DNA of 64,000 bases, taken from assembly GCA_050084515.1 (NCBI GenBank), contig CM114271.1, positions 46,314,001 to 46,378,000 of the forward strand. The letters run 5' to 3'. The notes under the pieces are model-generated. The model was not told the DNA's origin. It was given only the letters and a program-made list of their open reading frames with translations, and did not search any database. The position numbers and the translations under genes are program-made. Position 1 is the first letter of the stretch. Every line of letters begins with the position of its first letter. The stretch is from Blasia pusilla. Lineage: Eukaryota. Shown in pieces: positions 1-35,233 of the stretch.

Positions 1-700
1 AATCTCTTAGGTGACCTCTCTGCAAGCCATACTTGCGTAAACCCCTCTTCACCGTCTGCACAACTCTCTCCGCTAATCCATCCGCCTCGGGATGATCTCG
101 CGAAGTCATGCGATGGTCGATCAGCGCCTGATCACACAAGGCTTGGAACTCACTTCGAAACTGAATACCCTGGTCTGTCAACACCTCAGCCAGTGCGCCA
201 TAATGACTCATCACTCTATCAAGGAAGGTATAAGCTATTCCCTTACTTGCTTTGTCAGGCAATGCAACCAACTCGATCCACTTCGAGAAGTGCTCGACCA
301 TCACCAACACGACTGTGACGCTCCGTCAAAGGCAAAAGTCCTGCAAAATCTAAACTCCATCTATACCCTAAGCCCATGATCGGTAATGGATGCAACTGTG
401 GAGTTAGAGCATTGAATGATGCTCGGAACCAATCACACACCATGCACATGGCAAAAAACTGGTGAACGTCAGTCTGCATGCCTCGCCACCAAATCTGAAT
501 CTGGAGCAAGCAGTACGTCCGCTTCACCCCAAAGTGACCCAACTCCTCATGGGCATGCTGCACTAGTCGTGCTCTATGCAAAGGATGCGGCACTATGCGT
601 ACTCTTCCATCCTCCCAAACCCTCAAAACATGTGTCCCCTCCCAACGGAACCGTCTGGCCCGCTGTAGGATCCGATTCCGCCACGGTGCTCGCAAGGCTT
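1..700 (-). pseudogene. Integrase N-terminal part (copy A)
   Basis: ORF 255-695 contains HAHEELGHFG...CMVC (HHCC zinc finger) and WSLDFAG; frameshifted downstream. Confidence 0.9.
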
Positions 701-993
701 CCAGTACGAAGGTACTCCAAGACTACTCCATCATCATGAATATCTCGGCCATCTGTCGTCTCCTCATTGGCCTCGGGATCCAAGGACTCTCTACTAGACC
801 TCGCCATCAAAGTCTCCACACTCTGGCTCTCCATAGCCAACATGCCTAAATAGGTTGACGTGTGCCATCCTGGCAGTGACTCCTCATCACTCTCTCCATG
901 CCATCGAGCTCCAGTCGCATCTCGCTGACTCGGGCATGGGTTACGACTCAACCCATCTGCATCCTGGTTGAGCGTCCCAGGTCTATGTACCAG

Positions 994-2290
994 CTAAAAA
1001 TCATACTCTTGCAACAACAAAGCCCATCTCGCAAGCTTCCATGTAAGCTTGTCGGACTCCATCAACCACTTCAGTGGTTGATGATCAGTGATGACGGTAA
1101 AGGGATTTCCGAATAAGTAACACATGAAATGCGCGACAACCCACACTGTAGCCAAGCACTCACCCTCATACAAGCTATACTTTGCCTCTGTAGCATTGTT
1201 TGAGCGGCTAGCGTAAGCCACCACGAACTCTCTACCCTCATCATCATGCTGGGTGAGCACCGCTCGAAGCCCCAACATGCTCCAATCTGTGTGCAACTGG
1301 AAAGGACGCCTCCTGATTGGTCTCCTCAAGATGGACGCGAACGTTAACCTGTCCTTGAGCAACTGAAATGCTCGTTCCTACTCACCCCCTTGTACAACTC
1401 GTGATCCACCTTGGTCAGCAAGGTCAGCGGCTTTGCAATCGAACTGAATCCCTTGACGTACCACCGATAGAAGTTCTCCAATCCCATGAATGCGCGAACA
1501 CGGCTCACATCTGTAGGGCATGGAATGCATGAGATAGCCTCTACCTTTGTTTGTTGAACACCAAGGCCCCATGGGTATATTGTATGACCAAAGTACTCAA
1601 TCTGGTCGTAGAAGAACTTGCACTTGCCTTGATGTAGCTTCAGCCCATGTAATTGCAATCGTCAAAACACCTCCTCTAGATGTCGCTCATGCTCCTCAAC
1701 CGTGGCGCTAAAGACTACGATGTCATCAATATAACACCTAGCAAAATCCAAACCAACCAAGATCCTATCCATGACCCTCTGAAACTCATCCGGGGCATTC
1801 TTTAACCCAAATGATAAGAACCGCCTCTGTAACAAACAATCCTTCCCGTGAGGATCGATGCCCCAAAATGCCGTCTTCTGCCTGTCCTCCAATCTGATAG
1901 GCAGCTGATGGTATCCAAATCGCAAATCCAATGAACTAAAAACCTTTCCATGACCAATCGCATCAAAGATCTCCTCAGGGGTGGGCATGGCATACCTATC
2001 GGACTCCGTCTGCCGATTGATAGGTCGGTACTCCCCACATATCCGACTATCCGTCCAGTTGCCATGCACATCCTTCTTGGCGGGCGTGACACTGGCAGAT
2101 GCATACTCCCCATGCGACATCTCCACTAGTCCTGCTCCAACCAAGTCCTGGCTCCTACTCTGAATCAACGCCCTCTCCATATCACTGTACTTGTAGGGTC
2201 GTCAGAAGATCGGCGTATCACTCGACAACTCAATGCGGATCCCTGGTCCCTTCAGCGTACCCAAATCCTTCATGCTAAATACAGAGCAAC
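994..2290 (-). pseudogene. Reverse transcriptase and RNase H (copy A)
   Basis: ORF 1662-2180 has LDLRFGYHQ, FGLKNAP and CYIDDIVVFS; 1344-1658 is the RT thumb region; 994-1362 has FQLHTDWS, VVAYASR and TDHQPLKW. Confidence 0.95.
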
Positions 2291-2729
2291 TCCTATAACT
2301 CCTAAGGAATTGATGTATTCGGCGCCGCTCTCCTCCTGTGAACTTAAGGCGCATATCTGGCTCCCAAGTCTCCATCATGACTACGGTAGGACTCTCCGAC
2401 GCGGATATCGGTGGTTGCTATGGTGCAACCCCGTCTCGAACAACAACACTCCACCGCTCTCATGTAGCCAACTGCAAACTCTGACCTCCTCCACATGTAG
2501 TGCACGGAACCACACTCGATGCTGTGGCTATCATCTCTTGGTGTACCTGCAAAACATCCCAAGAAGTCCAAGGGTGTCTCTCTCGATCTCCCCTAGTGTG
2601 TCGATCTTCTCGGGTCTCGCCCCCAGCCACTGCCTCCACCATCTCGGTAGGCATGGGGCTCACCAACGCAACTGTTGTGATCTGTCGCGATCTCATCCGA
2701 CGCTGCTCAACCACTCCCAAGTTCAAGAT

Positions 2730-3680
2730 CCATATCAAGTAGTTCAGGTCCATTGCCTGACCCAAGACATGGCATCGTGATGCCTCTGATACTAACGGGA
2801 CTACTGTCACTCCTTGGAGAAATCCCATCGCCCGCTCTCTCTTGTCGGCATTGGGCTCCACCAACCTTTGAACGTGGTCATCCCAAACCAAGCAAGGACC
2901 GACCTCCTTGTATGCATAGGAAGCGGGAAAAATCACAAACGTGGGAAAGGCTGCCCGCGGCTTGCCTACCCTGTTGACCACAATCAATGGTGGTCGATCA
3001 TCGTGCCTCACTGCCTGTGATTGACGACTTGGATCCAGATGGAATCCACTAATAAATGGGAGGGGCGCTCCACTCTTGCATACGCCCTCCGTAACACCGC
3101 ATGGGGCACCAAGTTGGTCCACCATAGACGCGGACAATGGGCTCTATAATCTACACTCACCGCATCCAAGAACACTGCTGGGCCGATCCAGGCACGCACC
3201 TGATGAGCACTCGTCACCACCCGTGACGTGAAGTCTCCTAAGATGGGAACATTCTCCAGAATGTAGGCTGGAGAACGAGATTGGTGCTCCTACAACTGCC
3301 GTAAGACCTCAATATCTCCCAAAACAACATGGACCGAGTATCAGCCAACCCGCTGCCTCGTCCAGCACTCAATTGGCCTTGATATGGCCAACCAGAAATG
3401 ACCAAATCAATGGTCCCTACCCGCTCTAAGTCCTGAGCCCCCAACAACAAAATATCGCTCGGTAGGAAACTCTGGTATCCCTGTACCGCGGACGCAGACA
3501 ATTAGTCGGGAAAACATAGGTGTAACTACGACACATGTTGTAGTGAGATGCGCCTCGCAACATCATCACTCTCCAGATACAGGTACTATTGTACTCGCAC
3601 TCTTGCCTGCAAAACAACAACTAACCCGGTGCTTATCCCTCCAAAGAGGTCTAACACTTGAATACCCTTCTCCGAGATAC
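2730..3680 (-). pseudogene. DNMT3-like C5 cytosine methyltransferase domain in pol (copy A)
   Basis: Motif I IQVLDLFGGISTGL; motif IV IDLVISGWPYQG (catalytic Cys read as TAT at 3382-3384); motif VI ILENVP; motif VIII AHCPRLWWTNL; motifs IX/X ERAMGF...HVLGQAMDL. Split across frames. Confidence 0.9.
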
Positions 3681-3995
3681 ACCACACAATAGGTGTGGTA
3701 TCCAAGGGTGTCATCGTAGCACTCCCTGCTACCTCGGGTTCCTCAGACCCGTCATGCTTTGGTGCAAACGCCTCGCTCCACGTGGTTTGCACGTGCTCAT
3801 CTGCCAATCGTCGAAGCTCCTCAATTGAGCCCCACAGCGGCACCTCTCCTCCACGGAATTATGCGGCTACCATAACACTCCTCTCCATAGAAATGTCAGG
3901 AACGGGAGTATCCTCTGCATGGACATGTCCCTCAATCAAATCACTGCACATGTGAATTGAATGGGTAATGAGCTAAGGCGCCCATCACCTGACTG

Positions 3996-4400
3996 CTATC
4001 CTGGTCTGTAGGACGCTGACTCTTCCCAGTAATCTAGGGAAAACCCCATCGGGTATAACACTACTCCACCAACCAAGACGTCGTAGGACTGTGCATTAGT
4101 CACTATCGCCTTGGCTCGCACCATGGACTCATCTGTAGGATGTCCCGGGAGAATCCTCACCATGACCTCCTCTCGGGTGATATACTGTGTGATACTCGCT
4201 CCACCCAAGGATGTCCGTATCCGGAATGGATAACGCTCCACATCGGCTCTCGTCAAGCCTAATCCTCTGAATGACGCTTTCCCCAACATCAAGGGTTGCG
4301 CTCTTGAATCCAACAAGACGCGATGCGGACTGAAAGCTCTACCTCCGGGACTCACCAATTGGAAGACCTCTCCTTGGTTATCCAGAAACACAATACCAGG
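3996..4400 (-). pseudogene. Retroviral-type aspartic protease (copy A)
   Basis: RVLLDSRAQPLMLG (LLDSGAQ in the copy at 31316-31525) and YDVLVG. Confidence 0.8.
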
Positions 4401-5229
4401 AGAAGCCATGGCACGCTCTATCGCGGGTCTAGCAGACATCTCCGCCATCCTAGCAGCCGCAACCTGCCATGAATCTGACATGGACGGCCCGAGGATTCGC
4501 TCCAAGGGCAGGTCCATCACCTCCTCTGCACTCACCTCTGAATGTGATGCAGGAACTCCAACTCCACGCCACATACCGTAGCGGCCAGCCGAAAAGCCTC
4601 GGCGGGCGTACTCCCCAATGTCATAACATCAAAAGCATAAAATAAAGGAGCGCAGTACACCATGGTCGCTGTCCCCAACAACGTGCTCAACACATGCCCC
4701 TCGTGAGCATCAACAATAGGAGTCGTCGCACTCACTTCTCCCATCGCCCTCCGTGCCTGCACACCAACAACGTCACCGACTCTCCAGGAACTCTGATCAT
4801 GACCCATCGATGGGGTCCTCATTGCCTCGGACAACGTGAAAGACTGAGGAAGCCTAGTCTATTTCTTGGCTTCCCCTCGTTGTGGATCCAACTCTGCGGC
4901 TGCTCTACGCGTCACAACTACGGCGGCCTCCATCTGGGCAACCCCGCACATCCAACCTGGATCCTCCATATCTCTAGCTTCTCCATATGATGTCGATGCC
5001 ACGGATCCAACGTTGGGTAATCTCAATGCCATAGCGGCAATCTGCTCTTGTAGTTGATGTATCTGAGCAACCATCGTAGCCTCACGCCCGACATCTCCCT
5101 CGACGCGTCTAGGTGGTAAGACTCTAACTCCTCCATGGGCAGCTCCACCACCCTGTCGGGCAACTCCAGCTCCTCGTCCCCCAACGGGACCACCTGGTGC
5201 ACAATCTCTAGGCCCACCCGGACCGGCTA

Positions 5230-6560
5230 CTCGCTTTGGTGCCCTCTCTAGCCCTCGGTCCGGACGTAACTCAGGATGTAAACTGAAACACCTCGCGCAT
5301 GTATGACAATAGTCACACTGATAACCTCACGGTGCATCACCATCTCCTCCTCCATGAGGAAGCACACGTCCATGACCCTGACAAGTGCAATCGCGCTGAT
5401 GATGGGCTCCACCACATGACCAACAAGTAATAGTAGGTGGCTGCTACTGAGCCGCATATGAAGGCGCAGGTCTTTGTGGCACAACCTCCCGGTGTCCTCC
5501 TTGAGCTCGTGGTGTCACAATCGACCTATCTTGGAGTCCACGTTGCTGCACAGGTAGTGCAGACAATCGTGACTCCTCTCATCCAGAACCCATGGTGGCT
5601 ACGCTCTCCTCCGCCATGTTGCGCTCAATGTTCTCGGCGGTCCTAAAAACATCTGTTGACGTAGGGGAGGTGTTCATAAGAAGCACCCCTTCCCGCACCC
5701 GTGTCCGTAGGGTCCGGTCCAACATCGCGTACCATGACTGGATAGCGTGAGCCTCTATCACCCCGTGAGTGACGTTGATCAACCGGCGTAAGCGAGTGTA
5801 AGCCTCACACAAACTCTCACCTGGGTGCCTCTGGAAGTCGTGGATGCTCCGCAACTTCTCCGTCCGTACCCCTTGGTAGCTCGCCCTCAACTCAGCAAAG
5901 AACTCAACCAGAGGGTTGAACCTGGGACGAACCCAACTAGACGGTGCAACTGCTCCCGTGCAAGTGACCCCTCCTAAATGTCACTAGTGGAAGAGGAAGT
6001 AGCCTCTTCTGACTCCTCCTCCTCATCTGGGAATGGCTCCGTCCATGACACATAATGTGGGTCAAAGTAGAGCCTCCACGCCTCGATCTCACGTGCATAT
6101 CTCTGAGAGAACTCTTGATAATCATCCATGCTGGAACATACCGTTCCATGTTGTAAACGGACTGAACTCTCTAGAGTTCCTGGCCTGTTGGGAGTCGCAC
6201 CAACTCCTAAACTTTGCTATGAAATCGTGCAACTCAATCGTGCCTATTGCACCCTGCACCTGCAACCCTAAACCCTAAACCCTAAACCCTAAACCTACCT
6301 GAGCCTACGTGGTCCTCTACCCCGATCGTCCATCTCGTACGCCCAACTGGTAGGACCACTCACAATGTGTGGCGATATACTCACAAACTCCTCTACACGC
6401 TTCCCCTCGTCTAAAGACGACACAGAAGGAGATCGAGGTGGTCTCTCACGTGGAGACCCTCGAAACCTCACACCACTCCGGGTAAACCCTCTAGAGCTAC
6501 TCTCAGGTCCACTACCTCGCCTCTCAAAATCCTGAAAGGACGCCGTGATGACCCTCGTGC
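5230..6560 (-). pseudogene. gag (copy A)
   Basis: FQRHPGESLCEAYTRLRRL retrotransposon-gag motif (5579-5890); zinc-knuckle remnant SCGGAHHQRDC near 5390-5425. Confidence 0.8.
6266..6293 (+). repeat. Interstitial plant telomeric repeat (CCCTAAA)x4
   Basis: Four perfect CCCTAAA units read directly. Confidence 0.95.
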
Positions 6561-7619
6561 CCCTCTCACACGATCTTTCAACCTCGCGAGTAATCCCTCA
6601 ATCACTCATCCCAAACATGCAGCACTCGATCTACACTCTCCCTCCCCGAGATGTGTAACGTGCGGCAACAAGCGGCGTGGTGCGGCGAATTGACCAGACT
6701 ATCATCACATCGACAACCTACCCTCAACTCCGGACATCCCACACAGATCTATGTCCCCTAAACCACATATATAAATGATGCTCTCAACATCCACACACCC
6801 AATATCCCCAAATAAACTACCCAAATCCCAGTATCCCTCACACGTGCAAGATAAAGGACCACAATGGATAACCTGAACACATGTCGATGTCGCTCCTCAG
6901 CAACTGCAAATATCGACCAAAACTCGGTCGTGGAGATAACTCCTCCAATCATCAAGTCAAACTCCTCCCGTACTGACGTTGCTTAAAACTCCTTGATGGA
7001 CAGTGCGGTTCCAGCGGAACGGAACGGCTACGAACGGCATGACCCTCGATGGTGGGATGCGGCACTCGGCGGCATACCCTCCTCAATCAACAATAAACCC
7101 ACACTTTGCTCCACAATGACGGTGCGGTGCGGCCACGAGCGGCAATCCGCGGCGCGTTGCGGCTACGGGCGTCACGGGATAATACTCGATCGTCGTCGAG
7201 CGGCTATCAATCACAATATAGCAGCATGAAATCAAAACTCAAACACCATAACCGGAGGCCATCTACCATCACTGGTTGATGACAAAACTGCGATGACGGT
7301 GGCGGCCAACCAAAATACGTAGTGGCAGCGCAAGTGAGAGGATCAACGGTGGTTGTGGAAGACCCTCCACTTTGTAATGGCGGCAATGGCAACCAAAGGG
7401 TGGACAACGACCGAATGCAGCTGTGAGCAACGCTAGGCAACGGCAATGGCTAACGGTGGCCCGTGGCCGGTGGACCATTGACGGTGATGGTTGACCGTTG
7501 ACTAGTGACGGTGACTATGACGGCGACGGGCGCCGCCGGCGTGGCGGGTGGTTTAGGGTTTGAACAATTTAATCCTAAAAATTGCCTAGCAATGGCAGTT
7601 TTGCAAGATTGACCATAAC

Positions 7620-8562
7620 TAAATGCAACTCCAAATTGCGCACCGTTTGTTGCACATCGTGCACAGCTTCACGATCTACAACAACGTCAAAAAATATTTG
7701 GAATTGGACATTCCAATAAAAACCAAAGGGGATTGTCGTAAAGCCCATTGTCTCTTTCTCCTAGACAAAATTTGGCAGCGCTTCCGCGCTGATTTCTCCC
7801 AACCAAAATGTAAAACCTGTAAAAATACAAACCAGCAAGCTACATGTTGCTCCCGAGAGCACCGGCATGGGGCAACCCGCCCCCATAATCAATTCCTATC
7901 AGAAATTGGGCAGCGCTTCTGCGCGCCACTCTTCCACACGAAAAATCGGCAAATGCAAAGAACAATCAAATCAGCCCTTGCTCCGGTGAGCACTCCCATG
8001 AGCCGGTCAATGGGGAACACGGTCCCCAACCTGCAAAAATAGGGAGTGACCAGCGAGCTCCCCCATGAAGCTCTCTCACTCTCTCTTTGTAAAGTAAGAT
8101 CCAATCTCTCTCTACACCATCTCACACCATAGCTCTCAAAGGTGTGCACTCTCTCTCATGTCAAACCAAACCCACTCTCCTAATGATAGGCTTGGGTTAC
8201 ACTCACAAGGCAAGGGACCATAGCTCCATCGCCTCATGCCAAAAGGTTCAACAAAGAGAGAATGAGCTCTTAAGCTCTCTCTCCTTGAAGTATACCCCTC
8301 CCCTCTCCCAAGCTCTCTCCATGATGTAGGAGGTCAAGGGCCACTTACCAAAAATAGAAAGTTGATCATATATTCAAAATGGTACTTACCTAAAATAATA
8401 AGTTCCTCAATATGGCTTCAAATGAGCCAAAACGAAGGGGAAACCTGCTCTCTCAGGTTTCTCGGGGCCTCAACAGGTCATCCTCGACCTACTGAGTGTG
8501 TCCTCCACTACTCACAAAGGCACTCTACTAGATCTCATAAATATATCCTAAAAGATATGACA
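7620..8562 (-). repeat. 5' LTR-like terminal repeat of copy A (inner boundary uncertain)
   Basis: Homologous to 62670-63623 and, inverted, to 42112-42437. All three begin at the same TGTC terminus, where similarity stops. Confidence 0.8.
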
Positions 8563-11269: not shown

Positions 11270-11346
11270 CGCCCCCCTAGCTAGCAGTTGGATCCTCCTA
11301 ACTCCATATAGAAAATATCACATCTCCCTGACATGACTTACTACCC

Positions 11347-13063
11347 TATACACATCTCGGACATATCCATCATTCTGTAGGAACTACATCAAGAGGGGGG
11401 CTCAGACATGACATATGCCACCCTCGAGAACAACCACACATACCAACATGGTAGCTGAAGTCCTCGCAGATCCGCACAACATATACCTCAAGCATGTAGG
11501 TACCACTGTCAAGCTTGGATCTACTATCCTGTCCATATTTGAAGGGTGACATGGCGTACAATTACGCACATGATCCTTCCAAACCATATGATCCCGTCCC
11601 TCCAATATGAGGACTCTGATCGTAAATACCTCGCGCATAAGTAGGATGTGCGCCCTGCAGTGACATCTAGCGTCGTGGATATCGCATGCTGTAAATACAC
11701 GTAATCTCCAAGATGAAACCTCCTAATCCCTGGACGAAAACCTCCTCCACGAATGGTCGTGTACCTCAATGTATCCCTATGCTGAGTAATAGCTAAGTTC
11801 TCAAAGGCCATGGGCATAACTCTACGAAAAATCTCCGCCCTCTGAGAACACGCTTATACCCACACATCTGGATCATCAAGATCTAACACCTCTGCCATGT
11901 CACGTTGAATAGATGTAGGTAAATCTAGCTCTCTCCCAAAGAGAAAAAAGTAATGTAAAAATGACGCCAAGGATGGATGCTGACTGAAGGGATATCCCAT
12001 AGCCAACCATGGCAACTATAGGTCCCACTCTCTCAACTGTCCCCGGTCCAAGCCATACTTGTGCAATCCTTTCTTCATTGTCTGTACTACTCTCTCCGCT
12101 AACCCATCCACCTCAAGATGATCTCTGGATGTGGTGTGGTGATCCATCACCGCCTGGTCACATAAGGCTTGAAACTCTCCCTTGAACTTGGTACCCTGGT
12201 CAGTCAACACCTCTACCGGTGCATCAAAATCACTTAGCACACGATCTAGAAATGCATAAGCTATTCACTTGTTTTCCTTGTCCAATAGTGCCACCAACTC
12301 TATCCACTTGGAGCAATGCTCCACCATGACCAACACATATCTATAATGACGCCCCCTCAATGGCAAAGGTCCCGCAAAGTCTAAACTCCACCGATAACCT
12401 AAACCCATAATCAGAAAAGGATGTAAGTGCGGAGTGGGAGCATTGAAGGATGCTCGCACTCTATCACATACCATACATCTGGCCACAAAATCCTGTGCGC
12501 CAGTATGCATGCCGCGCCACCAATATTGAACTTGGAGTAAGATGTAACTACACTTTACTCCAAAATGTCCCAACTCCTCATGGGCATGTTATACTACATG
12601 TGTTTGCTGGGAAGGATGAGGTACCACTCGTATCCTACCATCTTCCCATACCCGCAAAATGTGAGTCCACTCCCACCTGAACCTCCTGGCTCTCTGTGGG
12701 ATCCGATCCCGCTCCCTAGCACTCACTGTGCTTGCTATGGCACTAGTACGCAAGAACTCCACAACCTCCACATCGTCATGGATATCACGACCATCTATCA
12801 TCTCCTCATTGACCTACGGATCCAAAGACTCATCATATGATCCCACCATTGGAGTCACCGCCTATGACTCACCTGCCATAGTCAACCAACAAAGATAGGG
12901 AGATGCATGCCAACTGGGCACCATCTCCTCATCACTCTCTCCATGCCATCGAGCTCCTTTGTTCTCTCTCTGACTCGGACATGGGTTACGACTTAACCCA
13001 TCCGCATCCTCGTTCAGCCGACCTGGCTTGTGAACCACGTCGAACTCATACTCTTGTAGTAAG
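11347..13063 (-). pseudogene. Integrase with C-terminal PHD finger (copy B)
   Basis: GHFG...CMVC, WSLDFAGP, VLTDQG, GLAER; then (Y)MLCGS...MLVC/GCSRGWHMSCLSPPLDVVP...WICPRC before the stop. Confidence 0.88.
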
Positions 13064-16000
13064 TATTGAAGATTGAGTTACAGTCAAGCTCATGAGACAC
13101 CTGAACTGCTACATTTGGTACTCACACGAAGTAGGAAAACTTAATCTTGGTTAGTCACTTAAGCGCAATTATCTTAACTAGGGTTAGTTAATCACAATTA
13201 GTCTAACTCGAGACCATGGTTAAGTTGAGGATAAGGGTTGCTTGTACATACCCTATATAATTGAGAAGGAGACCAGCCTCCACTCATTCTCTCATTGCAA
13301 ATTTCGTTCTCTATGGTGGTGTGTGAGTTGTTTCCCACCAGTTATGCTTCCTTAGAAGTTTTCCACATGGTATAAGAGCGATAGGAGAATATCACTTGAA
13401 ATTCTTGGTGTTTGAGGTGAGAAGAGAGGCAAGAGAAGGCACAATTTCAATTTGGGAGAAGGAAATTTTATTCACAGCTCAGTGGATGCAAATTTTAGGT
13501 GGAGCTTTGCCCATGATAAAACTTTGGAGGCGTTTTTTAAGGCTTTCCTGGTTAATTTAGCCATCTGGGTCCGCAACGGCTAGAATGATGCCAAATTTTG
13601 GTTTTAGCCATCTTATAGAACTCATTGAGAAATTTCCAATGCACCAAACTCACTCGATTCTGACATTTTGAGCTCATGCAGTAGCAATTTCAGTGTAGGA
13701 AAGTGCAATTAGTGAAGAAAAGTTGTGTAGTTTGCTCTATACATGCCAATTTCGACTAGTTCTTTCATACAGTTGATCAATTTTGGAAAAATTTAGGTTG
13801 ATTTTTGTGGAGGAGTAATCTATGCTTCAATTGGAGGAGTAGAGAGCCTGAATTTTTTTTTTTGTGAGTAAAATCGTTCGTCATGGAGTATTCCTTAACA
13901 ACAATCACACGCGAGAAGCTAGATAAGCAGAATTACAATGTCTGGAAGTTTCGCATGAAACAATTTCTCATGGGTCAAGAACTATGGGAGCTTGTCATAG
14001 GTGATGAGGCCAAGCCAGAAGGCGACTCAACAGACTTGAATGTTCGCGCATGAAACAAACACGCAAGGCAAGTAATCCACTACATTTCAATAACGATCAG
14101 TTCGCCAATGACATGTCACATTCTAGATATTGATAGTCTGGAGGAGGCTGGGATGCATTGGAAAAGCTATTCCACACATCTACAAAGGCCAGAAAGCTTC
14201 AATTAAATAAAAATTGAACGAAGTGAGTATATTATATTATATTATGAGTATCAGACATATTGTTGATCAGTTGAATAGCATTGGAGTGAGAGTAGAAGAT
14301 GATGATCTGATTTTGTTCACTCTTTAAGGCCTTCCCAAGGATTCCAAGTCCTTTGAGACCTCTATCTCTGTGAGAGAGAAGTATCCAACCTTTCAAGAGT
14401 TAGTCCCACTGTTAATCAGTGAAGAGATGCGCCTAGTAGGCAGCGGTAGCTCGTCTAGTCTGCAAAAGAGCTCTATTTGCATGTTATGGATCAAACAGAC
14501 GCATGGATCTTGGCAAAAGGCTTCCGTGGACATGGTGGATATCAATCATATGGAGGAAGAGGCACTCCATATAACGTCACACAATCAACTACGAACCAAT
14601 ACCAAACACAATCACAATGTGGTGATGGTGGAAACCGTTGGGGTCGAGGTCAATAGTAGAGGACCCTTGATCTTGCAATTACTGTGGGATAAAGGATCAC
14701 TACGCAAATATTTGCTTCAAGAAGAAGGTAGACATGAGAACACGAGCCTTATAGCAACGAAACTATGTGGAGCAACAATACCAAGAGCAGTACCAAGAAC
14801 AACAACATTCACAAACGGAGCATCTCTTGGTTATGACTCATCATATTGGAGCAATGGTCAAGAAAGACTCGACATCAGATTGGTACATTGACTCTGGCGC
14901 TTCAAATCATATGATCTCACAAGCTTAGTGGTTCAGTAGTTTGAAGCCGATGAAAGATCCTGCAATTGTGCTCACATGAGATGACACTCAACATCACATC
15001 ACGCATACGGATAAAGTTCCAATGGCATCATATGGTTTTTGTGCTCTTGGAAATGTTCTCTATGTTCCTACCATTGCAAGAAAGCTGATCTTTGTAGGAC
15101 AGATAGTAGAACAGGGTTGTCAAGTGAAGTTTAACATAGATGGTTATTCATTGAAACAATAACCAAAGGAACTAGATGTGGCAGAATGTTCAAATTAGAT
15201 ATTTCTATGCCAAAGATTCAAACATCTATGTATGGTCAAACCGGCCTACAAGTCACAGATCTAAATGTGTGGCATGAAAGAATTGGACATATGAATCTTC
15301 AAAGATTACAGAGGCTTTCATCATCTAATATAGTAATAGGACTCCCTAAATTAGCGAGTCCTATTACGTTAGAGGTATGTACTACTTGCCAATTTGGAAA
15401 ACAAGCTAGATTTCCTTTTCCAAAGCAAGGTAGAAGAGTTGGAGTTGATCCAGAGTGATGTGTGGACAACCTCACAACATAGCCTTAGTGGTTGGTAGTA
15501 CTTTGTTTCATTTATTGATGACTTCTCTAGTTATATATGGGTATACTTTCTGAAAGCAAACTCAGAGGTATTCTCAGTGTTCCAAACAGTCAGAGTTCCA
15601 GTACAGAAGCAAACTAGAGAACACATTCTGAAATTGTGTTATGATGGAGGAGGAAAGTATCTTTCAACAGAGTTTGATGACTATTTACGTCAGAATGACG
15701 TCCAACGTCAAGTAACTTGTTATTACATTCGATAATAAAATGGAGTGGCTGAGAGGAAGAATCGACCTATTGCTGAAGGGATACAAGTTGTGTTGAATGA
15801 GAAGAACATGCCTAAGGTGTATTGGGCAGAGGCTGTAGCATGTGCAATCTTCTTAATCAAGTGAACTCCAACAACAAGAGTTCATGATAAAAGCCCATTC
15901 GAAGTCTTCACAGGAAGTAAACCTCATTTCTCCTTCTTGAAAGTATTTGGCATTATTTGGTATGCTCATGTTCCTTCTGAGGGACATCAGAAATTAGACC

Positions 16001-17950: not shown

Positions 17951-19127
17951 TGTCGCGACCCTCATGACCAAACAAGTGCCAAGCGGAACATCGGAACATT
18001 AGCGCGCTCACGCTAAGATGGTTTGCGCGTTGGAGTTGTCTCAAAGAGGAGATAAGAGACGAGACGCGAGCGAGGAGTCACGTTTCAAGTGTTATGGTTG
18101 CGACTGAGAAACCTGGACCAAACGCGAAATGAGACTTGAAAGAAGTAGAGTCTAGGAAGTGGGTTGCCAAAAGGAAGATCCGGATTTGGAACGCCACTAG
18201 CGTTTGAGAGTTTCCGACTGTATTTATGGCCATAACTTTTAGCACCAAGATGCGTTTGGAGCAAATAAGGGTGCGTTGGAAATCTTATAGAGAGACGGTC
18301 CAAACGCACTAAAGATCGTTGCAAACGCATAAGTAGCGTCCGAGATACAACCCGAAAACGACTGTAAGTAGAGTCGGGTTGAGGGCCACAATGAAGGGCC
18401 CGACCCTCTTTTCCCAAAGGGGAGGGGTTATTGGAGAACCCCAGAAGTACTAGTAAGGGGGAAGGTCTCCGAGAGTGCTTGGAACCCAAACCCCACTTTG
18501 GGCGCCACGGGGCGGCTCAAGGGCATGGAACGGAACGCGAGTTTGGGCGTTGGGTTGGAAAACCTACACCAAGTCCATTGAGGCGATTTTAGACATCCCT
18601 CTTGGATTTCACACCGCGACTCAATTACTTGGGTCTCGGTTCGAAACTCACCCGAGGACCGTTGAACTGTTGGGATCGCTAGGCGCGCAAGGGCCGTTTT
18701 AGATCCCTGGACTAACCAGGAAGTTTGTTCCAAGTCTTGAAGGACTTGCCATGTTTTGGAAGCTAGGAACTAAGGAAGGTTGAGCTTGATGAGACGCCGA
18801 GTTGAGGACTCGGTGGGTTGGGACTCCGGTTGCCCAAACCCGACTAACCAGAGTGCGTGTTTGGGAGGAGATCGGCGATGAGTTCGTGACCTACTGAACG
18901 CACGCTTCCGCAACACTAAAGATTGACGTTCAAGGAGAGTAGGGGCGCGACAAGTGGTATCAGAGCTAATCCTTGGTGAGCGAGAACTTGGGGTCGTGGG
19001 ATCAGCCGGACGCTTGGGAAATTTCAAGGTAGCGGCTAGACTCGGACGCTCGAGGAGTTCGTGACCTACTGAACGCACACTTCCGCAACACTAAAGATTG
19101 ACGTTCAAGGAGAGTAGGGGCGCGACA
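17951..19127 (+). mobile_element. Internally deleted LTR retrotransposon (one full LTR, PBS, and the tip of the second LTR)
   Basis: TGTCGCG...CGCGACA termini; perfect TCAAC TSD (17946-17950 and 19128-19132); PBS TGGTATCAGAGC 18955-18966; 18880-18952 repeated at 19055-19127. Confidence 0.93.
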
Positions 19128-19527
19128 TCAACCATTGATGATAAGTGATAAGTGTGAAAGGGTTTGTGAATAGATAGCACTTGAAATGTGGCACGGCCCA
19201 CAGTGTAGCCAAGCACTCTCCCTCGTAGGAGTTGTACTTTGCCTCTGCAATGTTGTTCGATCGGCTTGCGTAAGCCACAACAAACTCCCTCTCCTCGTCA
19301 TCTCTCTGAGTAAGCATTGCTCTTAGTTCCAACATGCTCCAATCTGTATGCAACTGGAATGGACCACCCCTAATGGGTTTTTGTAAAATGGATGAGGACG
19401 TCAACATGTCCTTGAGCTCCTAAAGTGCTCGCTCCTGATCATCTCCTCATAACCAAACTTGATCAAGTCTTGTCAATAAGGTCAAAAACTTCGCGATCAC
19501 ACTAAATGCCTTGACATATCGTCGATA
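19128..19527 (-). pseudogene. RNase H and RT C-terminus of DNMT-Gypsy copy B
   Basis: PFQLHTDWS...VVAYASRSN; continues collinearly at 17889-17950 and left of 13063. Confidence 0.9.
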
Positions 19528-22500
19528 CACTAGAAGAAATCCTTAGTTTTAGGACTAAGACATATGACTCATACAAGTCATAATTTACATTCCACGAATG
19601 GCAATGACTAACGACTACTTTAGACACAAAAGCCAAGGCATATTTGTCTCGCGACTAGGCTAACTAAGATGGTCGGCTTAGGTGGACGTTGGTACATGAC
19701 TAGAGGGTGTAGTCATGAGGCCACGACTGACACGTCACTTTGATCATATGGAATAATGGCATTTCAACGCATGATGTGGACTAATTTTTGTGATATGGCA
19801 CTGATGATGTGGAGTATGGAAGACAACTCGTGTAGTCGTATCTAGGATATCCGTGTTGTTACCACCAATGACTACCACAGTCATGTTTAGTCATGTAAAA
19901 GTACATTGTATCGAATGACAATATAACAAGTGTACCACATGGGTGAGGAAGCCACTTGGTGGTAATAGTCCTGCCTCCATCAGTCATCAAATTTTCGGAT
20001 TCAGTCATAGTTCACAACTCGTGTAGTCATATCAATTTTTTCCACTACTTTAATTCACTCACGTTGTCATGTTTAGTCACTCGCCGAGTAGTGACACATG
20101 ACTAGGGTAGAAGGCCCTACAACTAGTGTAGACATGACAATACGGTTGTACGTAGGACATAATGAGTCCTATAGTCATTGCAATAGGACTGCATGAGTCA
20201 TGTTTAGTGATTAGGTAGGAATGATACCTCACTATACCAGTGATATTGATATGACTCGTAGTGATTGTAGATTTATTTTATTTTTGGAGTTTTTGATGAG
20301 TTTATTACTATCTTTTGAAAGGTCTTTCACTTGTAATTGGATATGAATTGCTAAAATCCTTGTGTCCATTTCTGTTTGAATTGCAACCCCATATCATAGA
20401 CATCAACATATGAATGTCTTAAAAGTAAAGTCTACTATCAGAATTGATTCTCATATCCAACAAACCAGATGTCTTAAGCCAATAAAGTCACCTCAAAAGA
20501 GAAGTCTATGCACCTCAGGTAGTTTTGTGCCAAAAAGAAAATTTACTCTACTACATCACCTTCCTCATATGCATCTTTGGCCAGACCATGCTCGATCCAA
20601 GAGCATCACCAAATGTTTCTTGTGCGGGTTCATCAATCAAATTTAGCATTCATAGGGCATGTTTATGCTAAAATACTTCATTGAGATCAACCCTAACCAT
20701 GCCTGGTGGGATATCCTTGGCATGGAACTTGTCTCTTCCGCCAAAACTTTATATGAACCCTGATCCTCGATTCGTAGCTACAAGAATACAAAGAACAAGC
20801 ACTTAGTTCCAATCCAAAATTTTCTCCCATGCATGTACACCATAAATCTGAAAATAATCTGCTATGAATTACCTGTGTGAATACCATCCTCATTTCGGAA
20901 GATCATGTGAAAAGTTGATAAGTCCTAGATGACCATGTAACTGTCCACAACAATTAACATCAGTGTCGTCATTTGAACCTTGAATGGATGAGGCCATTGT
21001 AGGCGAGAGAAGTTACCTTGGTTCTTTTCTTGGATGAGTCGGATCTGATTTCACTATCCTGCTCATTTGCTACATCACAGTGGAGCCTAGACTTCTGTCT
21101 TTTGGCTGGTGATCATTTAGCTTGGTTGTCCATACTCAAGTTTTCTGCACACAATTGTCATACAATTCTGTAAGATAAAATGTCCACTATTTTTTTGATG
21201 GATAGAAAATTGTGCAAATGAACCATTCAATATGTCAAGATCCCATGCTTACGAGTATTCCTAGTTTTATCATCCCCAACACTTTCCGTGGAGCTTCTCC
21301 TCTTGGTGCTCTGTTCTGGCCCTTCTGTAAGGAATCAAAGTCGACCAAGATGAGTTAGAATATTATGTACTTAACTACAATAAGTAATTGTATTACAAGT
21401 TCCTAGGTTTGATGAAGCAAAACAAAGCTCCTTACCACTAGATTGCCTAGTTGCTATTGCCTCCTTATGTGTTGAGATCTTCCTCTTCCCTGGTTGAGCT
21501 ATTCTCGCTTCAGAAGTTGGTGGATGTTCAACAACGACTGAAAGTTACCAAACTCAAAAGAAGATATTTGAGAAGATCAACAAGTGATATTCACTAAAAA
21601 TGACAGACGAAAGGCAAGGAAGAAATAGAAAGGGAATCTTTACATTGAATGGTGAGTTACTTGATGTTCTCTTCTCTTCCCCTGTTGCGGATGATAGGGA
21701 ACAGGATGGTGGGTTAGGGGAAATCTGTTGTGGTGTAGAAGACAAGTCCTTGGAGGTGAGCTTTGACACCATTTCCATCAGTACACCTAATGCTTTGTTC
21801 TGCCATTCCATCTGCAACTTCACATCATCCAAATCTGCACTCCACTTCTTCTCCACCTCCTCTAGCTGAATAGTAACTCTGGATTCCACAATCTGCATGA
21901 ATAGACCACATATTAGGTCAGAGAATAGGAGCTATAATTCTGCTACAATACAACCAAATTCAACCTATGATACTCACTCCTTCAACCGTGACATTCAGAT
22001 GGGTTACAACAATAGTAAGCTTGTAAATATACCAGTGAACTGAATTGTGTAAAACCTAGTTGTTTGGGCAGGTCTTCTCTCTCCATTGATTCTATCCCTC
22101 TGCCCAAGGATCCTTTGGACACACGTGGCACTTGCACATGCACCTTAGAAAAACTTGAATCTTAATTTCACATGTATTTAAGGGTTGAATGCAAGCAAGG
22201 AAATGAGCCAATAATCAAAATATTATCATATTACTCATGAACATTATCATAAAAACTAGGGAATGCCAAGATGACTTACATCAAGTCCATCTAGACCTAC
22301 TCGACCGGAGTAATTTAAAGTTTGGAACTTGGCCCTTGCTCCAGCCATCTTTTCTGCCTTCGTTTTGCCCTCCTCAGAAAGCTAATAATCTACTAATCAT
22401 GCCCATGACTCCTCATCGATATCAGGGTGACACGGGACAGTGCAATGTGCCCCATGTAGTGTCCAATAGTTCTTTACATTGTGTTATTTTCTTCTTCATG

Positions 22501-24200: not shown

Positions 24201-24753
24201 TGACATCAGACAACGAGCATGTCATCTCCCTAAAGCCAAGAATGTAGAATGTAGGCATAGAAGTGATGTATATGTGCTAAAATTACTGCCTATAAACTAC
24301 CTAGGTATCATCACTCAATAGTCGGTAATATAGACTCTATAATCATTTGAACATAAGTGAATGCTAAAAAGGGAGCAAAGGGAGCAACCAAACGAGCCTT
24401 TTCCAAGGCCGAAAGCTAGTGGCTACTCAATCACGGATGCCTTCAACTCCGACAAGGCTAGTACCCATCGAATCTGCCCTCTTACTACCAAAATCCTATC
24501 AAACTGTGCTCGATAAAATTTTGCAATCAATAAAAACATGTCTAGGTTCTCTCCATTGTGCACAGTTACATGTAGAAGCACATGCTTGTGGTGTCACATT
24601 CTCTGATGGGCTAGGTGTGGCGCACAAGTGGGATCTACTGCGATACAATTGGTCATCTGGATTCCCGCTGGTCAATGGAGGCGCCAAAGGTGTTGGAGGC
24701 CACGGTTGGGATGGCCCCTGTCCCTTGTATCCACAAATAAATGCAAGTGATGA

Positions 24754-27921
<3,168 letters not shown>

Positions 27922-28940: not shown

Positions 28941-28979
28941 TAAATGGTAAGAATTGCCATTAATCTCTCCCAAACTGAT

Positions 28980-31900
28980 CTATCCCCCAAAATGCTATCT
29001 TCTTCCTGTCCTCCAACCTGATAGGAAGTTGATGATAGCCACCACGGAGATCTAAGGTACTGAAAATCTTTGCATGCCCTACCGCATCAAAGATCTCCTC
29101 ATGAGTAGGCATGGCATATCAATCTGACCTTCTCTATTGATTGATAGGTTAGTAATCCCCACACATCCGTCTATCCATCCAATTGCCATACATATCCTTC
29201 TTTTCCAACATGACTGTGGCAGATGCATACTCCCCATGCGATAACTCCACAAGTCCTACCTCCAACAAATCCTGACTCCTGCCCCGAATCAAGGCTCGCT
29301 CCATATCAAAATACTTATAGTGTTGACGAAAGATCGGCGTATCACTAGCCAACTCAATCCGTATCCCGAGACCCTTCAGCGTACCTAAGTCTCTCATACT
29401 AAAGGCAAAACAACTTACATTCCCTCTCAAAAACCTATGAACTCACCGTCGCGCTCCTCCTATCAACTTGAGAGTTATCACAGGCTTCCAAGTCCCCATC
29501 GTAACTTCACTCGGAGAGGACGCAACCTTCGGCTTTGGTTGCTATGTAGTAACCCTGGCCATCTCCGCGAAAACCACTCCACTCTGACCTCCTACACCAT
29601 GCTCCACATCCAAAAAATGAACATATGTTGCTATGGCTGCCTTCGCATTCTATGCTCAAACGACGTCCCAGGAAGTCCATGGGTGCCTATCTCTCCTCGT
29701 CCCGCCCCCAGCCAATGCTTGTACAGACCCGGTAGGCAATGCTCCAACTCGTGGACGTGACCGCATGGATGACACTCGCATCTGTCTTTGCTCAGCCATA
29801 CCCAAGCTAACTATCCATGTGAGAAAGTTGAGGTCCATTGCCTGCCCCAATACCTATCTCCATGATACCTCAGTCATACCTGGCACCGTAGTAGAACCTG
29901 TAGCAAACCTCGTTGCACGCTCGCACTCATCTGCCATAGGCTCCTCCAATGCTCGGGTCACCTCATCCCAAATCATGCGTGGCCCTCCGTGGAAAAAGGC
30001 ATGGGATGTTGGGAAGGTGACCAACGTAGGTAAGGCTACCCTCAACTCCCCCACCCTATTGGCTATCGCCAATGATGGTCTATCATCCCGCGTCATCGGC
30101 CATCTGACATCGACGCCCTAAGCCCAAAATAGCATCCACTATGAGATGTGGTGCTCTTTGAACTCTATCGTATGCTCAACTCAGTACCACTGATGGTATC
30201 AGGTTTGTCCACCACATCCGTGGATGATGGGCACGTGAGCCAACTCTCACTGCATCTAACAACACAGCAGGTTCTAACCAAGATCTGATCTGATGCATAC
30301 TCGTCACTACACGTGCAGGAGTGTCTCCCAGCAATGGCACATTCTCCAAAATGTACATCAGGGAACATGTCTCACTCTCATGCAAGTGTTGCACTACTCG
30401 CAACGTCTCCCAAAATATCCTTGATCTGGGATCCTGCAATCCAAACTCTTGGCCAACTCTTGAATGACCATGACATGGCCATCCAAAAATCACCAAATGA
30501 ATGGTGCCAACGTTATCCAGATCGTGCACCCCCACTAAAGAGATATCGGCGGGTAGTGTATGCTGATACCCTTGTATTGGAGCTACCGGCAACAACTTAG
30601 GATACCTCTGGACCAATCTCGCCACGTGGCGTAATGATACTCGCCGCATGGTCTCATCTCTCTCTACATAAAGGTATTGATGCACACGAATACCCTCCTG
30701 CAACACCGCAGCTAATCCGGTGCTAATCCCTCCGAAGAGATCTAACACCCTAATCCCCTCCTCTAGACACTACCACACAACGGGTGTGGTATCCAATGGT
30801 GTGAACGTCTCCACTCCATGAGCCCGATCGCCACTTGAATCTTGCTACTTCGGGATAAAGGCATGACTCCATGCCTATCTCACGAGGTCGTCGGCACTCC
30901 TCTGTAGCTCTCGAGTCGTACCCCACAATGGTGAAGAGGTCTCGCCAACATGGGAAGAGACACCTCCCATGGCATGTCTCTTCATGGGACTATCCGCTAC
31001 TGGGACATCCTTTGCATGTGCGTTCCCCTCCAACAACTCTCTTGGCCAGCTAACACTACCTGTGAAAGCTGCCAATGTGGTCACAGACTCATCGCGTGGT
31101 CGAACACCATCGCGTTGCGGCAAACTCTACGGGTAACTGACTCATCCTCCCATCACGTGACCACCACCCTGGCCGATAAGCAACGGTTTCTCCCATAAGT
31201 CAAGGATGAATCCTAGAGGATATAGCTCTACACTCCCCACCAACACATCGTTTGACTCAGCTGGTGTTGTAATCGCACGTGTGCATACCATAGCACTATC
31301 CGTCGCATGCTATGGCTAGACTCTGAAAACTATCTCTTTTTTAGTCATATACTGCGTGCGTGATACGCCCCCAATCAAGGTCTGTATCTGGAAGGGAGAA
31401 GGCTCAATGTCGGCCTTCCGTAACCCCAACGCTAAACACGCCGCCTTCCCTAACATCAAGGGTTGCGCTCCTGAATCAAGTAGGATGCGATGCGGGTGGT
31501 ACATTGTCCCAGTCGGACTAACCAAGTGAAAAACTCAAGCTCAGTTATCCAATAACACCATGCCAGGTGTCACCACGGCTTGCTCTATGGTCGATCGAGA
31601 TGCCATGACTCTGTGGGGAATGTCCTGAGCACTTGCTCTGAGGGCAAGTCCACCACCTCCCCCAACTACCTTTGAATGAGAGGCACTCACCACTCCATGC
31701 TCATACAACATGGCGGCCAACCGGAACACCTTAGTTGGTCCAACTCCCAATATCACGAACTCTATGGCAGAAAATAACAGAGCCTGGCTCACCTTGGTGG
31801 CCACCTCCAACACTGTGGTCGACACTTACTCCACTCAAGCCAGTACATGAGCTGCCACTCCAACTCCTCAAAATGTCGAGGCACCTGCGTGACTAGTAGG

Positions 31901-32140
31901 CACCACTAGTCGTCGAGGCACCATCAATGGAGTGTATAATACCTCTAACAACGTGAACGATTGTGGAACCCGGGCCTGCCGCCCATCGGTTCCCTTCGAT
32001 GGGTCAATCTCGCAGCATCTCGAGTCACTACTGCAGTAGCCTCAACCTGAGCCACACTACACAAGTCATAAGGGTTTTGAAGTCTTGGCATGTCCAACAG
32101 GGATACACAATGACTCGGTACATCACAACCTTGGCACATT
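28980..32140 (-). mobile_element. DNMT-Gypsy pol fragment (RT N-terminus, DNMT, protease), probably the upstream half of copy B
   Basis: 29149-29430 RT start (RRMCGDY); 29650-30790 DNMT; 31316-31525 LLDSGAQ protease. Same strand and collinear with 10542-19527. Confidence 0.88.
29790..30790 (-). pseudogene. DNMT3-like C5 cytosine methyltransferase domain (copy B)
   Basis: A single 190-aa ORF (30176-30748) has LDLFGGISTGL, YLYVERD, GWPCHG with intact catalytic PC, ILENVP and AHHPRMWWTNL; motif X GQAMDL lies at about 29830-29850. Confidence 0.93.
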
Positions 32141-34929: not shown

Positions 34930-35233
34930 GTCAGGGTAAGAGGTAGAAGTTGGAGCCACACTAGCTATTCTAAGCTCCGTGCCTTCTCTAAGTTGGATCA
35001 TCGTCATGGTAGCAATCATATGCTCCAACTGATTGATGCACGAGAGAAGCGCCATCTCTAGGCTCTCGTTCCATCTCCTTTGGCTGGTGGTGGTCCTCTA
35101 CCATCACGTCCAGTAACAACTCCTCGACCTCGTCTAAGATGACCGGCCCCAAGCCCTCGGCCTACCTTTGGACGTACCTCTCGACGAAGGTCAAAATATC
35201 TATTCCTAGAGTGACCATATATGTGGCAATAGT
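34930..35233 (-). pseudogene. gag zinc-knuckle fragment related to the DNMT-Gypsy gag, cut by the Copia insertion
   Basis: YCHIYGHSRNRYFDLRREVRP plus an RG-rich tail resembles the 5150-5330 region of copy A. Confidence 0.55.

Follow-up and report, generated by a model that had tools for sequence, protein, structure and literature searches.

We analyzed a 64,000-nucleotide stretch of the Blasia pusilla genome (assembly GCA_050084515.1, contig CM114271.1, positions 46,314,001 to 46,378,000 of the forward strand), which is referred to as the window. Four or more copies or fragments, all of them decayed, of one Ty3/Gypsy retrotransposon family are present in the window. The family encodes a DNMT3-like cytosine-C5 methyltransferase (C5-MTase) between its aspartic protease (PR) and its reverse transcriptase (RT). 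Copies A, B and C all carry the methyltransferase (DNMT) domain. All window copies are dead pseudogenes with frameshifts and stops; therefore, none of them can carry out any of the functions proposed below. The positions of the features are listed in Table 1.

The methyltransferase-bearing copies and the identity of the domain

The domains of the window were mapped by open reading frame (ORF) lists, Pfam, tblastn with intact relatives and motif positions. In copy A, the order is PR, RT, RNase H and integrase (IN), as in Ty3/Gypsy elements (Pfam, tblastn); the integrase is cut by the start of the window. The initial annotation had reported unpermuted C5-MTase motifs on the pol strand at 2730-3680, between PR and RT, and both statements were borne out. 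Motifs I, IV, VI, VIII, IX and X follow one another in this order, the PRAAFPTFV block holding the motif IX position, and the domain is flanked by the protease active-site block on one side and by the RT with its YIDD motif on the other; the same arrangement is seen in copies B and C.

Copy A is heavily decayed. Its domain is spread over three frames (3942-3307, 3313-3038 and 3038-2553 by tblastn) with stops inside, and frameshifts were located at about 3310 and 3038. Motif IV reads GWPYQG, and the catalytic Cys is thus lost to Tyr. The gathering cut-offs are 22 bits for PF00145, 24.1 for Retrotrans_gag, 24.3 for the Asp protease and 24 for PF00628. Only one of the four ORF pieces of the copy A domain matches PF00145, at a sub-threshold 16.4 bits; its C-terminal DNMT piece aligns with intact relatives. 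The Retrotrans_gag match of copy A is weak (15.1 bits), and a regular-expression search found no intact CCHC pattern in its gag, the knuckle being lost to decay. The active-site DSG of its protease has become DSR, and the protease piece gave no Pfam match; relatives match Asp_protease_2 just under the cut-off.

The domains of copies B and C are better preserved. The catalytic Cys is kept in both, and the ENV motif is present in all three copies. PF00145 is passed by the open piece of copy B (P0002, 197 residues, motif I to VIII; 31.2 bits) and by the copy C domain (P0001, most of it in one frame, with X at five stops; 31.0 bits), both with an E-value of 2e-7. As judged by tblastn, PR and DNMT lie in a common frame in copies B and C, as do the C-terminal part of DNMT and RT in copies A and B. 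Copy B is truncated or interrupted below 28942, and copy C stops at about 53110 without RT. An RT fragment with 86% identity to copy A 1296-1753 lies misplaced between the gag pieces of copy C. It represents a rearrangement or a nested fragment.

As proposed in the initial annotation, the domain resembles DNMT3 and is not permuted in the manner of the plant DRM enzymes; its class as a DNMT3-like, unpermuted C5-MTase is set by likeness to solved structures. In a phmmer search of P0002 against the PDB, the top 29 matches were all DNMT3A, DNMT3B or DNMT3C (1.8e-9 to 5.9e-7), followed by HaeIII (0.0033), DRM (0.0045) and weaker matches. A profile built from eight domain sequences (A3) matched DNMT3A at 6.6e-20, DNMT3C at 8.6e-19 and DNMT3B at about 2e-18; tobacco DRM (5e-9), DRM2 (3.5e-7), HhaI (5e-6) and DNMT2 (1e-5) were weaker, so that the DNMT3 proteins are ahead of DRM, HhaI and DNMT2 by at least 10 orders of magnitude. 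The match between A3 and DNMT3A consists of three collinear stretches, namely motif I, motifs IV-VIII and motif X. The plant enzyme DRM2 is a distant C5-MTase of DNMT3 descent, a description that may also apply to the element domain. In contrast to this collinear domain, DRM has a circular permutation, and its match is confined to the first 130 or so A3 positions (5e-9 to 4e-7).

The predicted fold points in the same direction. An AlphaFold model of the domain of an intact relative has a mean predicted local distance difference test (pLDDT) score of 74.5 and a predicted template modeling (pTM) score of 0.79, the low-confidence parts being the catalytic loop and the region between motifs VIII and IX. 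In a Foldseek search of the PDB with this model, DNMT3A, DNMT3B and DNMT3C made up all matches listed, to rank 47, with an E-value of 4e-16, template modeling (TM) scores of 0.64 by query and 0.73-0.76 by target, and 20-22% identity. Matches in the ESM Atlas were generic C5-methylase clusters (Streptophyta, phage-labelled) at 0.96 and are uninformative on origin.

Host DNMT3 proteins, mammalian (DNMT3A, DNMT3B and DNMT3C) and plant (PpDNMT3b and MpDNMT3b), are the best match in sequence and fold. They share with the element domain the unpermuted order of motifs I to X and the parallels LFGG, PC, ENV, R.R..W.NL and ER..GF. Different from the host proteins, the element domain is only about 20-22% identical to them, has no PWWP or ADD in the same protein, has its motifs VIII and IX farther apart and belongs to a Gag-PR polyprotein. 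In ORF1 of the intact relatives L036 and L041, Pfam shows only protease and PF00145, and neither PWWP nor ADD was found there; we therefore speak of a DNMT3-like catalytic domain and not of a DNMT3 orthologue.

Table 1. Positions of the Gypsy-DNMT family features in the window (motifs on the minus strand are given in reading direction)
Feature	Positions	Strand	Basis
Copy A, gag region	4571-6253	-	tblastn, Marchantia P0007 residues 16-553; degenerate, three frame changes
Copy A, aspartic protease	3954-4487	-	tblastn, P0007 residues 578-757, 56% identity
Copy A, protease block LLDSRA	4316-4299	-	motif
Copy A, PR-DNMT linker and DNMT3-like C5-MTase	2553-3942	-	tblastn, motifs, ORF lists
Copy A, catalytic core	3654-2745	-	motifs
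Copy A, motif I LDLFGGISTGL	3654-3622	-	motif
Copy A, motif IV GWPYQG	3393-3376	-	motif
Copy A, motif VI LENVP	3259-3245	-	motif
Copy A, motif VIII RLWWTNL	3130-3110	-	motif
Copy A, PRAAFPTFV block	2960-2934	-	motif
Copy A, motif X ERAMGF	2837-2820	-	motif
Copy A, GQAMDL	2762-2745	-	motif
Copy A, in-frame UAG between DNMT and RT, then CAA CCA	2418-2420	-	same site and context in copy B and intact relatives
Copy A, RT	1365-2411	-	PF00078 56.4 bits; tblastn, L010 ORF3 residues 2-350, 72% identity
Copy A, YIDD	1733-1722	-	motif
Copy A, RNase H region	670-1497	-	PF17917 118.6 bits, PF17919 92.8 bits (994-1377); tblastn
Copy A, integrase, H2C2 finger and core start	2-716	-	PF00665 42.6 bits (2-325); tblastn
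Copy B, gag C-terminus, PR, DNMT, UAG and RT start	28942-32011	-	tblastn, motifs
Copy B, protease block LLDSGA	31483-31466	-	motif
Copy B, DNMT domain	about 29662-30769	-	
Copy B, open piece P0002	30769-30179	-	
Copy B, motif I	30745-30713	-	motif
Copy B, motif IV GWPCHG	30484-30467	-	motif
Copy B, LENVP	30349-30335	-	motif
Copy B, RMWWTNL	30220-30200	-	motif
Copy B, UAG of UAG CAA CCA	29544-29542	-	
Copy C, gag, PR and DNMT	53110-57426	-	tblastn, motifs
Copy C, misplaced RT fragment	56199-56818	-	YIDD at 56636-56625
Copy C, protease block LLDSGA	54856-54839	-	motif
Copy C, DNMT domain	about 53110-54138	-	
Copy C, motif I	54138-54106	-	motif
Copy C, motif IV GWPCQG	53877-53860	-	motif
Copy C, MENVP	53742-53728	-	motif
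Integrase with C-terminal PHD-like remnant	11328-13053	-	tblastn, L036 ORF2 residues 477-1042
RNase H fragment, same family	19126-19542	-	tblastn, L010 ORF3 residues 311-452, 68%; blastn, copy A, 74%
Integrase C-terminal fragment ending in PHD finger	40872-41811	+	tblastn, L036 ORF2 residues 728-1037

Intact relatives, the conserved stop and the spread of the family

When longer proteins were searched with P0002 by a word index, 41 matches were obtained: 16 gene models of Marchantia polymorpha, two proteins from Calypogeia fissa and two from Sphagnum, the rest being contigs. The Marchantia gene models read gag-PR-DNMT (P0007, 1278 residues) or PR-DNMT-RT-RNase H (P0013). Metagenome contigs were also scanned; 184 of 214 candidate stretches were confirmed, and 80 loci were kept. 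In intact relatives, PF00145 scores 37.8-51.1 bits.

The contig locus L036 displays the whole coding plan. Its ORF1 (976-5082) encodes 1369 residues with a CCHC pattern (regular expression), an Asp protease at 22.4 bits, just under the cut-off, and PF00145 at 51 bits. It is followed by one stop and, in the same frame, by ORF2 (5086-8226, 1047 residues), in which Pfam finds RVT_1, RT_RNaseH, Integrase_H2C2, rve and PHD in this order. L041 and L010 share this layout, and ORF1 of L010 carries zf-CCHC at 32 bits. The coding plan of the family is therefore gag - protease - DNMT3-like C5-MTase - UAG - RT - RNase H - integrase - PHD finger. The initial annotation had placed the enzyme inside pol; its location between PR and RT holds, whereas the domain is not strictly inside pol, as it ends the gag-PR ORF, with the UAG before RT. 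Because the DNMT domain belongs to one uninterrupted ORF with gag and PR in L036, L041 and L010, it is not a separate insertion. With the PF00145 matches and the shared frames in the window, none of the refutations named in the initial annotation came true.

Direct long terminal repeats (LTRs) of 290-340 bp, about 8.7-9.2 kb apart, were found in L001, L011, L032, L052, L056 and L072. They are of the TG...CA type and start with TGTCATG, and those of L032, L011 and L001 end in ...TTTTCA. The 342-bp LTR pair of L032 is 92% alike.

The stop between DNMT and RT is conserved together with its context. The junction reads TAG CAG TTA in L036 and L042, TAG CAA TCA in L041, TAG CAA CTA in L076 and L078, TAA CAA CCC in L001, and TAG CAA CCA in L010 and in window copies A and B; UAG CAR YYA thus fits eight of the nine, L001 being the exception. 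All 15 Sphagnum-type loci in which the DNMT end and the RT start are in frame have a stop (TAG in 12, TAA in 3) followed by CAA CCC. This stop is at codon +98/99 after GQAMDL and 44 codons before the RT FAFSM block. The stop and the CAR triplet persist while flanking residues vary between sublineages. No conserved RNA structure was found downstream of the stop (consensus -0.06 kcal/mol), as expected for a context-only signal. Of 25 database proteins of the gag-PR-methyltransferase type, 21 have a tail of 62-166 residues behind the domain.

UAG CAR YYA is the context that makes the replicase stop of tobacco mosaic virus (TMV) leaky, and it is used by other plant viruses (PMC3542737, available in part). 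Like these type I leaky stops, the element has a single in-frame UAG with CAR YYA before its polymerase; different from them, this putative leaky stop is located in a plant LTR retrotransposon, and the methyltransferase is last in the upstream product. We infer that the conserved stop is a programmed readthrough site. Among retroviruses, gammaretroviruses use gag-pol readthrough, and alpharetroviruses carry PR inside the gag frame.

The integrase of the family ends in a PHD finger. PF00628 scores 40 bits at the end of L036 ORF2 (residues 990-1034) and of the L052 integrase (L052 10841-11995). In the window, a PHD finger at 41659-41808 (plus strand) passes PF00628 with 27.9 bits, and a broken PHD-like remnant lies near 11328-11432 (minus strand). 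Like chromoviruses, which are also Ty3/Gypsy elements, the family has a histone-reader module at the integrase C-terminus; the reader of chromoviruses is a chromodomain, whereas that of this family is a PHD finger. The family is thus predicted to combine one module that writes DNA methylation with another that reads histones.

The family is large and widely distributed. A full HMMER search with A3 over 1.84 billion representatives (clusters at 50% identity) returned 10659 proteins at E <= 1e-3, 2218 at E <= 1e-10 and 450 at E <= 1e-30; many matches are 1000-3400 residues long, as judged from the best 150 listed. The matches listed by three word-indexed protein searches were all transposon-borne relatives. 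Among the matches listed in the protein searches, the named liverwort and moss members are from Marchantia polymorpha, M. paleacea, Calypogeia fissa, Sphagnum fallax, S. troendelagicum and S. jensenii, and the more distant named members are from Closterium sp. NIES-53 and NIES-54 and from Scenedesmus sp. PABB004 (labelled 'pol'). No Klebsormidium protein was among the matches listed in the protein searches for relatives of the domain. In a FastTree phylogeny of the domain, copies B and C fall into a clade of 27 tips (support 0.995), all 16 named tips of which are bryophytes; the Closterium elements form a separate gag-PR-methyltransferase clade.

A sister lineage (L052, L055-L058 and L062-L080) has the order PR-DNMT-RT-RNase H-IN-PHD in one frame, without a stop after DNMT in six of seven in-frame loci; in its motif IV, GWECQG takes the place of GWPCQG, and the Calypogeia fissa protein P0325 groups with this lineage. 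For this lineage, a leaky stop before DNMT was considered and rejected. Of 21 loci examined, 17 had motif I; the codon is TGG (Trp) in 11 of these and TAG, TGA or TAA in six, which fits decay of a Trp codon. In a large outer clade that includes Scenedesmus, the domain seems to be located between RT and IN, as judged by crude motif tagging only; polyproteins of this clade reach 3456 residues (for example, P0131, P0139 and P0135). One close relative of the domain, P0253, is labelled by NCBI as a metagenome-assembled genome of 'Candidatus Obscuribacterales'; it is most likely a mis-binned plant or algal contig.

Sequence constraint was examined in the 191 full-length domains found among 355 collected proteins. 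Of these domains, 99% retain the Cys of motif IV and 100% the Glu of ENV; in motif VIII, the two Arg are kept in 98% and the Asn in 100%. An uninterrupted domain was found in six of the 80 loci, and only two pairs had a usable synonymous divergence (dS). In one of them, L036 versus L042, the ratio of nonsynonymous to synonymous divergence (dN/dS) is 0.117 at a dS of 0.27.

Besides copies A, B and C, the window contains smaller pieces of the family (Table 1). The integrase fragment at 11328-13053 matches PF17921 (45.3 bits) and rve (23.4 bits, under the cut-off) at 12220-13053 (minus strand), and is possibly the distal part of copy B, split off by nested insertions. An RT fragment between the fragments of the Gypsy-DNMT family (26219-26734, minus strand; PF00078, 43 bits), near the ORFs at 25580-27414, belongs to another, probably non-LTR, retroelement. 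A second, unrelated repeat family of about 2.7 kb is present at 13062-15738 and 35233-38022 (plus strand), with a spacing of 22.2 kb and 85-92% identity; an ORF in it (14328-14888) has a sub-threshold kinase-like match. A long CT/GA dinucleotide microsatellite at 24502-24945 translates into a run of LS repeats, and 48001-50000 is very AT-rich, with a GC content of 0.26 compared to 0.36-0.55 in the rest of the window. No recognizable host gene was found in the 64 kb.

Precedents, possible function and competing explanations

Elements of this kind have been known since 2018, and the window copies are land-plant members of the kind. KnitGypsy-Dnmt3 of Klebsormidium nitens was reported by de Mendoza et al., together with DNMTs carried by DIRS and LINE elements of Symbiodinium (PMC5890265, available in part, as were the other sources cited by identifier below); the dinoflagellate and charophyte precedents mentioned in the initial annotation are thus correct. 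Like the family in the window, KnitGypsy-Dnmt3 is a Gypsy LTR element whose coding region includes a Dnmt3-related domain that is unpermuted and free of introns. Compared by published description, its host is a charophyte, whereas the window copies fall into a bryophyte clade. Its domain is located in the Pol ORF, and a legend states that its repeats are arranged as in DIRS (PMC5890265); in the relatives described here, the LTRs are direct TG...CA repeats, and a stop separates DNMT from RT. The K. nitens domain is under purifying selection (Ka/Ks < 0.2; PMC5890265), in agreement with the dN/dS of the single pair L036 and L042. SymbioDIRS-Dnmt3 of Symbiodinium also carries a retrotransposon-borne Dnmt3-like domain; different from the present family, its backbone is DIRS with a tyrosine recombinase and not Gypsy, and the domain was independently acquired according to the authors. 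DIRS-borne domains alone methylated CG de novo in yeast (PMC5890265). Methylation of the complementary DNA (cDNA) after reverse transcription is one proposal of these authors among others (PMC5890265).

Later papers of the same group mention 'streptophytes (Gypsy-DNMT3)' without more detail. In the literature searched, the coverage of which was partial, we found no description of a Gypsy-DNMT3 element from a land plant (liverwort or moss) and no mention of a leaky stop or a PHD finger in Gypsy-DNMT3 elements; the available parts of PMC12344493, PMC6453930, PMC11982613 and a 2026 bioRxiv preprint (10.64898/2026.05.21.726589) likewise contain no land-plant description. Neumann et al. 2019 (PMC6317226) classified the LTR elements of plants; in the part available, there is no methyltransferase-bearing lineage, and the word 'methyltransferase' occurs 0 times. 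A preprint on methylation in Marchantia (bioRxiv 10.1101/2021.02.12.428880) names the host genes MpDNMT3b, MpCMTa, MpMET and MpDN4MT1a/b; 'retrotransposon' and 'reverse transcriptase' are absent from the part available.

Taken together, a Ty3/Gypsy family with a DNMT3-like methyltransferase before a leaky stop is the best overall explanation, and we consider it probable. Most ribosomes would stop at the UAG and yield Gag-PR-DNMT, and a minority would read through and yield a fusion with RT-RNase H-IN. Since the stop lies after DNMT, the methyltransferase would be made in Gag amounts, and it would enter the virus-like particle with Gag. Cleavage by the protease would then free the enzyme, whose target may be the element's own new double-stranded cDNA or the fresh insertion. 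Such self-methylation is the function that we favor, although we place it slightly on the doubtful side. The PHD finger of the integrase may read histone tails and steer integration, as chromodomains do in chromoviruses. The element might gain in that it is taken for 'self' or already-silenced DNA, in that its cDNA is protected, or through a self-restraint that spares the host.

Several points weigh against the leaky-stop methyltransferase family as the explanation, or against parts of it. Enzyme activity is predicted for all family members, and the assignment to DNMT3 comes from likeness to solved structures and not from a tree with host DNMT3, DRM, CMT, MET1 and DNMT5. In the only published test of a Gypsy-borne DNMT3 domain, that of K. 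nitens, no methylation was observed in yeast, a result called inconclusive by its authors (PMC5890265). The 64-kb window holds no complete copy, no LTR pair and no target-site duplication (TSD), nor could a clean TSD be made out in the relatives examined, L032 and L056 included. The Sphagnum-type junctions end in CCC and not in YYA. The second usable pair, L001 versus L026, has a dN/dS of 0.84 at a dS of 0.06, the outcome expected if copies decay once they have inserted. Finally, CpG depletion is not discriminating: the ratio is 0.66-0.73 in the copies, 0.46 in the rest of the window and 0.28-0.70 in intact relatives. CpG depletion was accordingly dropped as a sign of self-methylation, the copies not being tellingly different from either. 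The intact relative L010 (321-6809) has a CpG observed/expected ratio of 0.28 and a GpC ratio of 1.18. Its depletion exceeds that of the dead copies in the window and may stem from CG methylation of the lineage over a long time.

An active enzyme could also work in trans on host chromatin, at neighboring genes, rival transposons or host silencing genes, and not on its own cDNA. Enzyme at Gag level would far exceed the need of one cDNA per particle, and an accidental action on the host genome is considered in PMC5890265; however, the sequence gives no hint of a nuclear targeting module on DNMT itself, Pfam showing only protease and C5-MTase in ORF1, and the PHD finger is carried by the integrase, across the stop from DNMT. 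We regard action in trans as unlikely. The stop itself might be a true terminator, with RT-RNase H-IN produced by reinitiation or from a spliced or subgenomic RNA and without any Gag-PR-DNMT-Pol fusion. Such a view gains from the Marchantia gene models P0013 and P0020, which join DNMT to RT by predicted splicing, and from a further point against the leaky-stop explanation, namely that readthrough is deduced from nucleotide sequence. It is nevertheless decidedly unlikely: in intact loci, the two ORFs always share a frame and are separated by exactly one stop, the hexamer behind this stop matches the leaky context at all but one of the nine junctions, and no conserved start signal of ORF2 was noticed.

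The substrate might be RNA, that is, the domain would methylate the genomic RNA of the element in the manner of DNMT2 and not DNA. This was raised for the LINE-borne DNMT in PMC5890265, and the DNA activity of the Gypsy-borne domain is a predicted one; as the A3 profile matches DNMT2 at 1e-5 compared to 6.6e-20 for DNMT3A, and the top folds are all DNMT3, we find an RNA substrate very improbable. Even less credence is due to a catalytically dead module that binds DNA or serves as a scaffold like DNMT3L. The lost Cys of copy A and the GWECQG of the sister lineage would fit such a module, but the near-universal Cys and ENV Glu of the 191 domains do not, and the loss in copy A accompanies general decay. 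That chance placed a pseudogene of host DNMT3, or else some separate insertion, between PR and RT of one element was suggested only by the broken frames of copy A. Chance juxtaposition is refuted by the same order in three window copies, by dozens of contigs and annotated proteins and by the uninterrupted gag-PR-DNMT ORFs; with hundreds of relatives sharing the plan, chance is ruled out, and we give it practically no weight.

Meaning for bryophyte transposons and DNA methylation

DNA methylation is the main way in which plants silence transposons. A transposon with its own de novo methyltransferase would reverse this usual picture, and the precedent of 2018 covered one charophyte and dinoflagellates. 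The present analysis adds that liverworts and mosses commonly carry such elements; they also occur in the model Marchantia polymorpha, annotated there only as hypothetical proteins. It further adds the size of the family (450 clusters at 50% identity with E <= 1e-30), the conserved context of a putative leaky stop, and the PHD finger of the integrase.

A wider joint reading can be put forward tentatively, and we hold it to be possible rather than probable. It describes an old LTR superfamily of the whole green lineage, with members in chlorophytes, zygnematophytes, liverworts and mosses, of which the bryophyte branch marks new copies by means of a leaky-stop enzyme. If this is true, the superfamily would exist in at least three domain orders (gag-PR-MT/RT-RH-IN-PHD, with the slash for the stop, PR-MT-RT-RH-IN-PHD and PR-RT-MT-IN; MT, methyltransferase; RH, RNase H), all of them combining a writer with a histone reader, and the enzyme of the bryophyte branch, made in Gag amounts, would mark each new copy at birth. 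Part of the de novo methylation of early land plants would then be encoded by transposons and not by the host, and the Marchantia 'hypothetical protein' models with PF00145 would be such elements.

In practical terms, counts of DNMT genes in bryophytes should leave out these copies. More broadly, the family bears on the question of what a transposon gains from methylating DNA.

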